Part shown: one piece after another, positions 4,441-7,575 of the stretch
Layout of the letters: each line of letters starts with the position of its first letter
How positions within the stretch are numbered: the stretch's first letter is position 1
Source of the DNA: a virus
Taxonomy: Duplodnaviria > Heunggongvirae > Uroviricota > Caudoviricetes
Length of the DNA stretch: 12,562 nucleotides
IMG/VR virus record: IMGVR_UViG_2531839666_000031
Reading direction: 5' to 3' (one strand)
Notes under the pieces: model-generated
What the model was told of the DNA's origin: nothing
Database searches by the model: none
What the model saw: only the letters and a program-made list of their open reading frames with translations
Position numbers and translations under genes: made by a program

Positions 4441-4991
4441 CCCTGACCCCGCATCAGCGCGCCCTGTTGCAGTTGCTGCCTGACGGGCTGGCATGGGATA
4501 AGCGGCCGTCATCCGTTCTTGCGGCTTTGTGCCTGGGCCTCAGTCATTCCACGGAGCGTGTTTCCTGGACCGGTAACCAGATGCTGGCAGAACGTTTTCC
4601 TGATTCATCCCGTCTGCTGCTGGAAGACTGGGAGCGTTATCTGGGGTTACCGGAATGTGATATGACCGGCGCAACCATTCAGGAGCGTCAGCGTTATGCC
4701 GGGAATAAATACCGGATGAAACCCTCTCTTAACCGTGAATTTTATATCCGGTTTGCGGCAGAGTTTGGTTATGAAATAGATATTCAGCCATCACCGGATT
4801 CACAGTGGGTCAGTATTGTCACGATTAACAGTGAAACCGGCTACCGGAATATGAATGTGCTGGATGATATTCTCACCCCGCTGCGTATTTATGAGGGTGG
4901 TGCGCTGGAATGTATTCTGAACCGTTATAAGCCTGCATGGCAGACGTTTATTTACGTGTATGCAAACAGCCATGAAGAGGAGACTATTTAA
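4431..4991 (+). CDS. Tail protein (Mu gp48-like, DUF2313/YmfQ-like)
   Basis: 186-aa ORF, start overlaps the gp47 stop, stop overlaps the tail-fibre start (TAATG at 4989-4993); position immediately upstream of the fibre gene as in Mu and e14. Confidence 0.65.
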   Translation: MAVTLTPHQRALLQLLPDGLAWDKRPSSVLAALCLGLSHSTERVSWTGNQMLAERFPDSSRLLLEDWERYLGLPECDMTGATIQERQRYAGNKYRMKPSLNREFYIRFAAEFGYEIDIQPSPDSQWVSIVTINSETGYRNMNVLDDILTPLRIYEGGALECILNRYKPAWQTFIYVYANSHEEETI

Positions 4992-5902
4992 TGTTTCATG
5001 TTGATAATAATTCCGGCGTGGCGAATATGCCTGCGCTGGCACCGGCGCAGAGTAATACCACCACCTGGTTTACCGAAGGTGACGGACAAAAAGGTATCAG
5101 CTGGATTGGTCAGGACTGGCTGAATATTCTCCAGGCCGAACTGCTGAATATTCTGGCTGAAGCCAGTATTCAGCCGGATAAGGCGCAGTTAAACCAGCTT
5201 ACGCTGTCCATTAAAGCCATTATCGCTGCGAATGCCTTTTCCCGGAAAAACAACCTGAAAGAAATTGCTGATGCCGGTGCGGAAGCCCAGCGTCTGGCCC
5301 GTGGTTATCTTGGTCTGGGGACGCTTGCCACAAAAAACAGTCTTGGTCCCGCTGACGTTAATGCCCTGGCGAAGGATCAGAACCTTGCCGACCTGGAGAA
5401 TGCGGAAACCGCCCGTAATAATCTGGATGTTTACAGCAGGAGCGAAGGTGATAACCGTTACCTGCGCAGGGAGCAGAACGGCGCAGACATTCCGGATAAA
5501 GGCGCTTTTATCGATAACGTCGGTTTACGGGAAACGGTAAATAAGGCTGCTGATGCCCTGCCATCGGGTGGAACCGCCGTGGCAGCAAACAGACTCGCCA
5601 CCCCAAGAAATATTAATGGCGTTCCTTTTGACGGAACGCAGGATATCAACATCACGTCAGGAATGACGCAGTCAACCGCAGATGGCCGGTATGTACAGAA
5701 TGTTCAGCTTGGAGCACAGAGCTATCATTCACCCGGAGGCAATGAAATATCATGGAATTACAGCGCACCTTCCGGTTGTATGCTTTCCGGTATTAACGTG
5801 CAGGAAACCGGCTCCCGGTCTGCGGACAATATCGGTGGGGTCTATTATCGCCCGGTTCAGATTTATATTAATAATGCCTGGAGAACGGTAAGTTCAGTGT
5901 AA
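4991..5902 (+). CDS. Tail fibre protein (Mu S-like): constant N-terminal part plus variable C-terminal part currently joined in frame
   Basis: 303-aa ORF; N-terminus MFHVDNNSGV..WFTEGDG..ILQAELLNIL..IQPDKAQLNQL is of the Mu S/e14 Stf type; contains the left crossover site at the constant/variable boundary (..NGADIPDKGAFIDNVGLRETVN..); C-terminus ..VYYRPVQIYINNAW resembles the alternative cassette on the other strand. Confidence 0.8.
   Translation: MFHVDNNSGVANMPALAPAQSNTTTWFTEGDGQKGISWIGQDWLNILQAELLNILAEASIQPDKAQLNQLTLSIKAIIAANAFSRKNNLKEIADAGAEAQRLARGYLGLGTLATKNSLGPADVNALAKDQNLADLENAETARNNLDVYSRSEGDNRYLRREQNGADIPDKGAFIDNVGLRETVNKAADALPSGGTAVAANRLATPRNINGVPFDGTQDINITSGMTQSTADGRYVQNVQLGAQSYHSPGGNEISWNYSAPSGCMLSGINVQETGSRSADNIGGVYYRPVQIYINNAWRTVSSV
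5508..5533. other. Left crossover site for a Din-family DNA invertase (gix/hix/pix-like 26-mer)
   Basis: TTATCGATAACG-TC-GGTTTACGGGAA; about 22 of 26 positions match the recalled gix consensus TTATCCAAAACC-TC-GGTTTACAGGAA; lies inside the fibre gene, centre within the Val codon at 5519-5521. Confidence 0.65.
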
Positions 5903-5912
5903 ACCACAGAAA

Positions 5913-5931
5913 AGGGTGCTGAATGCACCCT
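5913..5931. terminator. Hairpin between the convergent fibre and assembly genes (possible bidirectional terminator)
   Basis: AGGGTGC-tgaat-GCACCCT, 7-bp perfect stem with 5-nt loop, lying between the fibre stop (5902) and the - strand assembly gene stop (5937); T-rich flank on the - strand. Confidence 0.4.
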
Positions 5932-5936
5932 CTGAA

Positions 5937-6458
5937 TTATTCCGGTTTTTCCGGCCAGGGAATCGCCTGGTAATGCCCCTCACTGGCAATATCATTAAAG
6001 TGCATTTCTTTAAGCTGTCGGATATACGCCATCCAGCGCGTCAGCTGTAATTTATTTTCATCGCTAATCATGTCCAGTTTTAATTCTGTTTTCCAGTCAT
6101 CCACGGTTTCGTTGGCTTCCTGGAGCAGCGATGAGCGACGCTTTTCAGCAACCGTCTTCCAGTTTACCGGCACCTTTGATATCAGGCCATCAGAAAACTG
6201 CCAGTTACCGTCAATATTCACACCTTCCGGCAGTTCGTCCACTTCAACAACAGTAAAACCTGCCGGATATAAAGCAGAGACATCTTCAGCAACAGAGCAG
6301 ATAATACCCGTTACAGGCGAAATACAGAGTTTGTATTTCTTTGTGAAAAGCGGGATAGATTCATAAAAATCCCTTCCGTCCTCACTCTGGAAATACTGAA
6401 CATCCTCACCATAGGGTTTGTCTTTCGGGTAATATCGTTTGACATTAATCAGTTGCAT
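5937..6458 (-). CDS. Tail fibre assembly protein (Mu U-like chaperone)
   Basis: ORF 5937..6509. Likely start is the ATG at 6458-6456 (MQLINVKRYYPK..) preceded by GGTGA; the 17 upstream codons are hydrophobic and lack a ribosome-binding site. C-terminus ..HYQAIPWPEKPE matches the conserved Tfa C-terminal motif. Confidence 0.75.
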   Translation of the reverse strand: MQLINVKRYYPKDKPYGEDVQYFQSEDGRDFYESIPLFTKKYKLCISPVTGIICSVAEDVSALYPAGFTVVEVDELPEGVNIDGNWQFSDGLISKVPVNWKTVAEKRRSSLLQEANETVDDWKTELKLDMISDENKLQLTRWMAYIRQLKEMHFNDIASEGHYQAIPWPEKPE

Positions 6459-6579
6459 AAACATCACCATGTAAATCAATGATAAAAACAGGAATAATAC
6501 TATCGCCATATACAGGCAATGCTTGTCTGAAATAACGCATATTTCAGATGCTGGCTGCTGTGTGCTATGCCCCCGTTAA

Positions 6580-6946
6580 TTAAATACTTGCAGCGGATAC
6601 CCAATGCCCATTAATACAATATTGTATCTGTCTGTAATAAACACGGTCATCACCACCACGCATTTCCCAGTCTCCGTTAGTCTTAAAACCGGTAATCACA
6701 TTTCCTGATGACAGGGAGTAATTATATTCCAGTCCGCCGCTTAATGCCTGCGCTCCCAGTCTTACCCCTGTAACATAACGCTGATTGGCCGTTGATTCCG
6801 GCATTCCTGACGTAATGTTTATATCCTGCGTGCCGTCAAAGGCGACACCATTGATTCTGCGGGCATTTGCCAGCCTGCTTGCTGCAACAGCCGTACCGTT
6901 TGATGGCAGGGCATTCGCGGCCCTGTTTACCGTATCCCGTAAACCG
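6580..6946 (-). CDS. Silent alternative tail-fibre C-terminal cassette (Sv'-like, no start codon of its own)
   Basis: Reading the - strand from the right crossover site gives ..GLRDTVNRAANALPSNGTAVAASRLANARRINGVAFDGTQDINITSGMPESTANQRYV..GDWEMRGGDDRVYYRQIQYCINGHWVSAASI-stop with no internal stop; a TGA lies immediately upstream of the crossover site. Homologous to the expressed C-terminus. Confidence 0.6.
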
Positions 6947-6959
6947 AGGTTTCAGGGAT
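6934..6959. other. Right crossover site for a Din-family DNA invertase (near-palindromic 26-mer)
   Basis: ATCCCGTAAACC-GA-GGTTTCAGGGAT, inverted relative to the left site, 55 bp upstream of the invertase start. Confidence 0.65.
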
Positions 6960-7013
6960 GCCGTATATCTGCTTTAAAAGGCCTTTCCATCTCTTTTTAA
7001 GGAAGGTAAATAC

Positions 7014-7575
7014 ATGCTGATTGGCTATATACGCGTATCAACAAATGACCAGAACACAGGTTTACAAAGAAATGCGCTGGAATGTGCAGGATGTGAGCAG
7101 ATTTTTGAAGGTAAAATGAGCGGAAAAACAACGCAGCGGCCGGGACTGAAGCGGGCACTGAAGAAACTAAAACCCGGTGACACGCTGATGGTCTGGAAAC
7201 TGGACAGGCTGGGGCGCAGTATGCGCCACCTTGTTGCGCTGACAGATGAATTACAGCAACAGGGGATAAATTTTCGTAGTCTTACTGACAACATTGATAC
7301 GTCAACCCCCACTGGGGCGCTTCTTTTTTCACATAATGGGTGCGCTGGCAGAAATGGAGCGTGAATTAATTGTCGAACGGACACGGGCTGGTCTTGCAGC
7401 TGCCCGTGAAAGGGGACGAACCGGCGGCAGACCCCGCCGTCTCACGCAGGAACAATACGAGCAGGTCGGGCGTTTACTGGCCGGGGGTGTCAGTCGAAGA
7501 CAGGTGGCACTTATTTTTGATATCGGTCTTTCAACCCTTTATCGTTATTATCCTGCGAGCGTTTCGGAAAAATAA
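7014..7575 (+). pseudogene. Serine DNA invertase (Gin/Pin/Cin/Hin family) with an apparent +1 frameshift in a C5 run at 7306-7310
   Basis: N-terminus MLIGYIRVSTNDQNTGLQRNAL..DRLGRSM is a canonical resolvase/invertase catalytic domain (Ser in VST). The frame ends at 7364, and the conserved continuation GRFFFHIMGALAEMERELIVERT..GGRP.. is in the next frame (7294..7575). Deleting one C from acccccact restores ..DTSTPLGRFFFH... ATG at 7014 preceded by AAGGAAGG. Confidence 0.7.

Follow-up and report, generated by a model that had tools for sequence, protein, structure and literature searches.

Does the tail-fibre region of the Escherichia coli prophage fragment analysed here act as a DNA inversion switch that exchanges the tip of the fibre, and does such an inversion occur in nature? 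The fragment, in the following called the window, is the whole 12,562-nucleotide stretch of IMG/VR virus record IMGVR_UViG_2531839666_000031 (Caudoviricetes), and the region in question extends from position 5508 to position 6959. The original prediction, derived from the sequence alone, had described it as a compact host-range switch of the Gin/Pin type with crossover sites inside the tail-fibre gene and as a reduced version of the G segment of phage Mu. This description proved accurate throughout, and its interpretation is supported. In the prophage family to which the window belongs, this region is a DNA inversion switch of a working type, and its inversion happens in nature. With a probability of roughly 0.9, we regard it as the host-range switch of a Mu-like prophage of the Sp18 type and as a shortened homologue of the Mu G segment. 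The switch is of a known kind and resides in a prophage family whose invertible region has already been mentioned in print, and its novelty is low. The segment and the adjacent invertase gene consist of the following parts:

4991..5521, + strand: constant N-terminal part of the tail fibre, codons 1-177, homologous to residues 1-170 of Mu S
5508..5533, + strand: left crossover site, gix-like, with the centre TC at 5520-5521, inside codon 177 (GTC)
5522..5902, + strand: tip cassette A, 126 codons plus stop; the tip made in the window orientation
5937..6458, - strand: tail-fibre assembly (chaperone) gene tfa, 173 amino acids (aa), the only one, co-oriented with cassette B; Pfam Caudo_TAP, E=2e-18
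6580..6945, - strand: tip cassette B, start-less, 121 codons plus stop; joins codon 177 once inverted
6934..6959, - strand: right crossover site, gix-like, with the centre GA at 6946-6947 on the + strand
7014..7575, + strand: Gin/Pin-family serine invertase gene, inactivated by a 1-nucleotide (nt) insertion (C at 7312, codon 100)

The left crossover site reads TTATCGATAACG TC GGTTTACGGGAA and the reverse complement of the right site ATCCCTGAAACC TC GGTTTACGGGAT; they share 18 of their 26 bases, including an identical 13-bp core, TCGGTTTACGGGA. The gix reference used for comparison, the 26-mer TTATCCAAAACCTCGGTTTACAGGAA, was taken from the G-segment boundaries in the Mu genome record AF083977 and not from a remembered consensus, and both crossover sites of Mu in this record consist of TTATCCAAAACC-TC-GGTTTACAGGAA. 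When both strands were scanned over about 12.5 kb, the left site (22/26) and the right site (19/26) turned out to be the two best matches of the window, as anticipated for a pair of inverted sites of the Din family, and the third-best match reached 16/26. In 100 mononucleotide shuffles of the window the top score was 16.2 on average and 20 or less in every case. The likeness to Mu runs on into the segment (ACGGTAAACAGGGC), and the sites occupy a homologous codon of a homologous fibre gene. The alignment to gix that had been suggested as a check finds both of them homologous to Mu gix in sequence and in fibre-gene position. The central dinucleotides, foreseen to be compatible, are one and the same pair in inverted orientation. 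Two inverted 26-bp sites with imperfect 12-bp half-sites and a shared 2-bp centre, a hallmark of Din systems, are therefore present. Additional gix-like sites, which would point to a multi-site, shufflon-like system, were sought across the window, and none was found above the level of shuffled sequence, the next best being the 16/26 match.

Reverse complementing positions 5520-6947 in silico (1,428 bp) creates an uninterrupted fibre gene of 298 codons, made up of the 177 constant codons and 121 new ones, as had been claimed for the antisense cassette that lacks a start. A stop-free antisense run of 122 codons would arise by chance with a probability of about 0.003, before the further 1-in-3 odds of the frame are taken into account. 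The variable parts, expected at about 120 aa, measure 126 aa (tip A) and 121 aa (tip B), and a constant N-terminus that is fused in frame to either of two C-termini, a feature of G segments, is present. Residues 1-198 of the fibre are 48% identical to residues 1-191 of Mu S, and its last approximately 70 residues align with Mu S residues 436-503, while the middle of S, a shaft of about 245 residues (approximately 192-435), is absent. Both fibre isoforms match PDB 5YVQ_A (E=2e-48 and 7e-66), 5YVQ being the entry of the Mu S/U crystal structure. Tip B shows 59% identity to the tip of Mu S. The last approximately 70 aa of tip A are homologous to the Mu S tip as well, yet closer to tips of P2-like gpH proteins (46%) and to the tail fibre of SfMu (60%), which is more than 95% identical to Mu S'. 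Measured against a diverged relative, the ratio of non-synonymous to synonymous substitution rates (dN/dS) of tip A is 0.10 at a dS of about 1, and by this measure tip A is under strong purifying selection.

Whether such a flip takes place in nature was examined by comparing the window form and the in silico flipped form with 5,426 complete E. coli genomes, a genome being counted for one orientation if the match covered at least 80% of the length in one co-linear place. The window form occurs in 183 genomes and the flipped form in 26 (of 209). The prophage sits at a shared chromosomal site in two bovine isolates from Okinawa, OkiPb01678 and OkiPb01712, which over 14.8 kb differ only by an exact inversion of 1,428 bp and by one single nucleotide polymorphism about 4 kb away. 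The annotated fibre of the flipped strain OkiPb01712, WP_137571455.1, agrees with the predicted fusion at 294 of 298 positions, and the four differences are all situated in the constant part. In O157:H7 strain 2-6-2 the Sp18-type prophage is flipped too, and tfa now lies downstream of the fibre gene. Inversion isomers, on which the original prediction had staked itself, therefore do exist, and their breakpoints fall in the 13-bp core of both predicted sites. Position 26 of the sites (A or T), which distinguishes the inner half-sites, swaps sites in flipped isomers and the outer half-sites stay put; a base that moves with the segment between fixed outer half-sites implies that the exchange occurs at the centre of the site. 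Actual inversion with exchange at the centre, another hallmark of Din systems, is thus found in relatives with an intact invertase.

Annotation pipelines call a 61-aa "hypothetical protein" (WP_001497588.1) in relatives, corresponding to positions 6815-7000 (+ strand) of the window. This open reading frame (ORF) runs antisense to cassette B and spans the right crossover site, and it is most likely a spurious call that is present in one orientation only.

In the proposed mechanism, a Gin-family invertase encoded just downstream would bind as dimers to both 26-bp gix-like sites, cut them at the central TC, and exchange the half-sites, whereby the 1,428-bp segment would invert. The fibre promoter, the ribosome-binding site, and the first 177 codons would stay fixed, and the C-terminal receptor-binding tip would be replaced. 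In the window orientation a fibre with tip A (126 aa) would be made; in the flipped orientation it would be a fibre with tip B (121 aa), followed by Tfa on the same transcript. Tips A and B may recognise different receptors, and inversion would be expected to require both Fis and an enhancer within the invertase gene, at its 5' end.

The intact orthologue of the invertase contains Resolvase and HTH_7 domains, Ser9, and the motif MLIGYIRVS, and it is 75% identical to Mu Gin. It also carries the Q..RL residues in helix 1 of the DNA-binding domain, which have been described as specific to Fis-dependent invertases (McLean et al., eLife 2013, PMC3798978). The invertase gene of the window has one base more than the intact 186-aa gene of O157 Z1813 and of Sakai Sp18, and removing position 7312 brings back the 186-aa frame. 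The product encoded in the window would comprise 99 correct and 17 out-of-frame residues, which agrees with the earlier implication that the adjacent invertase is not intact. The frameshift at codon 100 drops the E-helix and the DNA-binding domain and, for this reason, the segment cannot flip on its own. An adjacent serine recombinase with a catalytic domain and a helix-turn-helix, as is typical of Din systems, is thus encoded in the family, whereas the copy of the window is frameshifted. As judged from the gene sequence, the window copy should be locked in orientation A as long as no other Din invertase of the cell acts in trans. Genes for pin are common in E. coli. A Din invertase can act in trans on the segment of another prophage, since PinQ of Qin inverts the e14 segment (PMC12529663). 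By analogy, trans-complementation of the window switch is plausible.

Among known systems, the closest in layout to the window is the prototype of this prophage type, Sp18 of E. coli O157:H7 Sakai, for which an invertible host-specificity region was already mentioned in 2009 (Asadulghani et al., PMC2669165). There, gene order and gene sizes are alike, with ECs_4989 (fibre), ECs_4990 (tfa), ECs_4991 (fragment), and ECs_4992 (DNA invertase) encoding a 303-aa fibre, an opposite-strand 173-aa Tfa, a start-less cassette, and a 186-aa invertase, followed by genes for a DUF6645 protein, DUF1378, DUF826, com, and mom. Identity is about 99% for the constant part, tip A, tfa, and the invertase. In contrast, the second cassette of Sakai is tip C, which diverges in its distal part from tip B of the window, the invertase is intact in Sakai and frameshifted in the window, and the prophages are inserted in sorM and yeaX, respectively. 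Also, both centres of Sakai Sp18 are TT/AA, whereas they are TC/GA in the window, in O157 strain 2-6-2, in the Okinawa strains, and in Mu; such a concerted change is expected if both 2-bp overlaps must match. "Localized conversion" of crossover sequences has been described for the Cin system of P1. The second cassette (positions 6460-6945 of the window) has been exchanged between lineages, being tip B here and tip C in Sakai and in a copy borne by Shiga toxin (Stx) phages, with tip A and tfa constant; this exchange is bounded on one side within the first codons of tfa and on the other within the cassette's conserved proximal part.

With the G segment of Mu, the segment of the window shares homologous crossover sites at the same position of the fibre gene, the TC centre, and an invertase that is 75% identical. 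The constant fibre N-terminus and the alternative tips are homologous to S, and Tfa is homologous to U/U'; gp47 and gp48 lie upstream, and gin, com, and mom downstream. The segment measures about 3.06 kb in Mu but 1.43 kb here, the variable parts about 335 aa but 121-126 aa here, and Mu possesses two chaperone genes as compared to one in the window, where the S shaft is lacking. Another difference is a cargo block of about 3.2 kb between invertase and com in the window, a place where Mu has nothing. The view of the segment as a reduced Mu G segment therefore holds, in that its 1,428 bp, with sites, fibre, and Tfa, are homologous to the Mu counterparts. The e14 P segment with Pin and the P1 C segment with Cin resemble it in having a small serine invertase, 26-bp sites inside a tail-fibre gene, and swapped C-terminal fibre cassettes, although they belong to other phage backbones. 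A chaperone gene for each orientation is carried by the P1 and e14 segments. Systematic inversion scans already recover fibre switches of the Mu type (PMC9881135). As a possible further example of the compact type, CP066032.1 with its long-read-confirmed Mu-homologous fibre inversion (Milman et al.) was considered and rejected, as it harbours a canonical two-chaperone segment of the Mu type.

A scan of contigs from representative genomes gave long matches in Citrobacter braakii and Edwardsiella anguillarum only, the E. coli representative being devoid of the prophage. In C. braakii ATCC 51113 (locus L012, 4001-7871), a Mu-like prophage encodes a fibre whose N-terminus is 73% identical, a single opposite-strand tfa, an antisense cassette, and a Gin-like invertase. 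It differs by a long fibre of 472 aa with a shaft and by a tip-A-like cassette that adjoins tfa. Just one exact AAACCNNGGTTT core was found in this prophage, and it is likened to the window by gene layout, which indicates that the single-chaperone arrangement also occurs outside E. coli.

The sole mildly unusual feature of the switch is this single chaperone gene, co-oriented with just one tip. One chaperone gene instead of two had been predicted, and a single Caudo_TAP gene was indeed detected in the segment; the second one of a canonical G segment, which has one per variable part, is absent. The Sp18-type element exhibits, for the family, the defining Din features that were tested, but not the canonical two-chaperone feature of a G segment. 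Tfa shows 29-30% identity to both U and U' of Mu, matches PDB 5YVQ_B (E=1e-15), and is annotated as WP_001473653.1 in relatives. Between the stop codon of tip A and that of the convergent tfa there is a gap of 34 nt, which holds one further feature:

5911..5933, no strand assigned: G+C-rich hairpin of 9 pairs where the fibre and tfa genes converge, with a T-run on the - strand; probably a bidirectional terminator

A search for an independent promoter upstream of tfa gave none that is convincing, the six sigma-70-like matches, as compared to 4.2 expected, corresponding to background level. The single-tfa layout is also found in Sakai Sp18, in the diverged Stx-phage-borne copy, and in the C. braakii prophage; it is conserved in the lineage and no accident of one copy. 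The diverged copy inserted in Stx phages has a tip A of 82% identity and carries tip C as its second cassette. Copies with the very different adjacent tips B and C share a Tfa of about 96% identity, which suggests a generalist chaperone. As to tip A, its folding may be independent of Tfa, it may borrow Tfa from another prophage, or it may assemble poorly.

The window represents the right-hand third of the Mu-like prophage, the transposase end being situated beyond it. Upstream of the fibre gene, homologues of Mu gp44 to gp48 (Pfam GpP-like, Phage_Mu_Gp45, Baseplate_J, Phage_Mu_Gp48) are encoded, the immediate neighbours of the constant part being the gp47-like (Baseplate_J) and the gp48-like genes. 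Downstream follow the serine recombinase gene, the cargo block, and com and mom (Zn_ribbon_Com, Mom). At about position 11955 the right end of the prophage adjoins and interrupts yeaX, coding for carnitine monooxygenase reductase (11955-12562 of the window), a junction that is found in none of the 5,426 complete E. coli genomes. Many strains of Shiga-toxin-producing E. coli (STEC) harbour relatives of 99.4-99.7% identity, which are inserted elsewhere, in puuB or upstream of meaB, with Sakai Sp18 located in sorM. Such variation of insertion sites between strains is as expected for a transposing Mu-like phage, and the features of a Mu-like transposable prophage, i.e., Mu-type morphogenesis and right-end genes and variable insertion sites, are present.

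The cargo block between invertase and com/mom (7675-10324) encodes a 679-aa protein that combines a SASA carbohydrate-esterase domain with DUF6645 at its C-terminus, and genes for DUF1378 and DUF826 come next; this trio presumably resembles the nanS-p esterase region of Stx phages. NCBIfam left the fibre, tfa, and the 679-aa protein unnamed. Between the DUF826 gene and com, a minus-strand gene (10362-10820) is split in the window (ORFs 10363-10557 and 10413-10820), and it is annotated as frameshifted in all relatives examined.

Several observations weigh against taking the window region for a functional host-range switch. With its invertase frameshifted, this particular copy is not expected to be active without help. 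A 1-nt deletion near position 1611 divides the gp44-like baseplate hub gene, a single 374-aa gene in relatives of 99.7% identity, into two ORFs (1201-1659 and 1644-2324). A Fis enhancer was not located, because the motif scanned for in the window and in Mu, G-N13-C around an A/T-rich centre, is too degenerate to place one in the invertase gene's 5' part; identity to Mu gin is 82% over the gene's first 60 nt and 76% over nt 60-130. Finally, no chaperone gene is co-oriented with tip A, although one accompanies each of its nearest relatives, namely P2 gpH, the C. braakii cassette, and the Mu S'-like SfMu fibre. The prophage of the window is probably defective, unless both indels are sequencing errors. 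That the window copy is a dead switch in a decaying prophage, which never flips and gives rise to no particles, has slightly better than even odds in our estimation, since the +1 insertion in the invertase gene and the -1 deletion in the gp44-like gene affect genes that are both intact in the closest relatives. However, the sites, both cassettes, and tfa are intact and essentially identical to those of strains with demonstrated inversion, Din invertases work in trans on foreign segments (PMC12529663), and the indels could be errors of sequencing. Moreover, decay of this kind concerns this copy alone and not the nature of the element.

More far-reaching alternatives concern how the isomers arise and what they are for. 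The crossover sites belong to a longer inverted repeat:

5516..5694, no strand assigned: left arm of an extended inverted repeat, with the right arm at 6773-6951; 179 nt, 75% identity

The repeat reaches 179 nt, beyond the 26-mers, because the first approximately 60 codons of both cassettes are homologous, and general, RecA-mediated recombination between its arms might be invoked for the isomers. This origin is scarcely credible and was rejected, as the repeat, with 75% identity and a longest perfect run of 13 bp, is too short and too diverged for efficient exchange, and polymorphisms that flank the 13-bp core in the sister strains keep their linkage, which confines the exchange to the core, at the gix centre. 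In addition, a Gin orthologue adjoins the segment, and the centres co-vary in Sakai. Another proposal starts from the lone tfa gene: if only tip B together with Tfa gave assembled fibres, orientation A would be unchaperoned and poorly assembled or non-infective, and inversion would turn infectivity on and off. The co-orientation of tfa with cassette B, the background level of promoter-like matches ahead of tfa, and a Tfa gene that follows each relative of tip A (in P2-like phages, in C. braakii, and, via the SfMu fibre, for Mu S') speak for such a coupling. Yet we consider it unlikely, for tip A is under strong purifying selection, orientation A prevails in 183 of 209 genomes, and Tfa, accompanying tips B and C, looks like a generalist that could serve tip A if made or be substituted by Tfa from other prophages in the cell. 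A related idea holds that the single-chaperone layout is functional and no loss, inversion toggling both tip identity and the co-expression of Tfa, i.e., between a bare and a Tfa-capped fibre, with orientation A relying on the Tfa of co-resident prophages. North and co-workers are said to have found in 2019 that Tfa stays bound to the fibre tip in Mu. We are rather doubtful about this idea; if true, it would amount to a prophage-community-dependent control of host range, which is undescribed for Din switches. Very improbable in our opinion is a benefit to the host, in which the flipped fibre chimera would serve as a receptor-blocking anti-phage factor. Such a use has been reported for StfE2 of e14 in E. 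coli K-12 after PinQ-mediated inversion (PMC12529663), and the window prophage looks partly defective; on the other hand, nothing here points to expression beyond the late operon, the rest of the Mu-like morphogenesis module is conserved, and Sp18 DNA is reported to be packaged efficiently (PMC2669165), which fits an ordinary host-range function for the phage. An Sp18-type host-range switch homologous to the Mu G segment thus remains our preferred reading of the region.

The importance of this switch beyond annotation is little, and its lone chaperone raises the small question of how strictly fibre tips depend on Tfa. For annotation, it means that in Sp18-type prophages the ORFs called as a start-less "partial tail protein" and as short "hypothetical" ones represent the second arm of a working host-range switch. 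The compact form, with its fibre of 300 aa, its tips of about 120 aa, and its single chaperone, is a possible minimal scaffold for engineering switchable receptor-binding tips. Sp18-type prophages are common in STEC, and complete genomes of near-identical strains can differ by such a programmed inversion.

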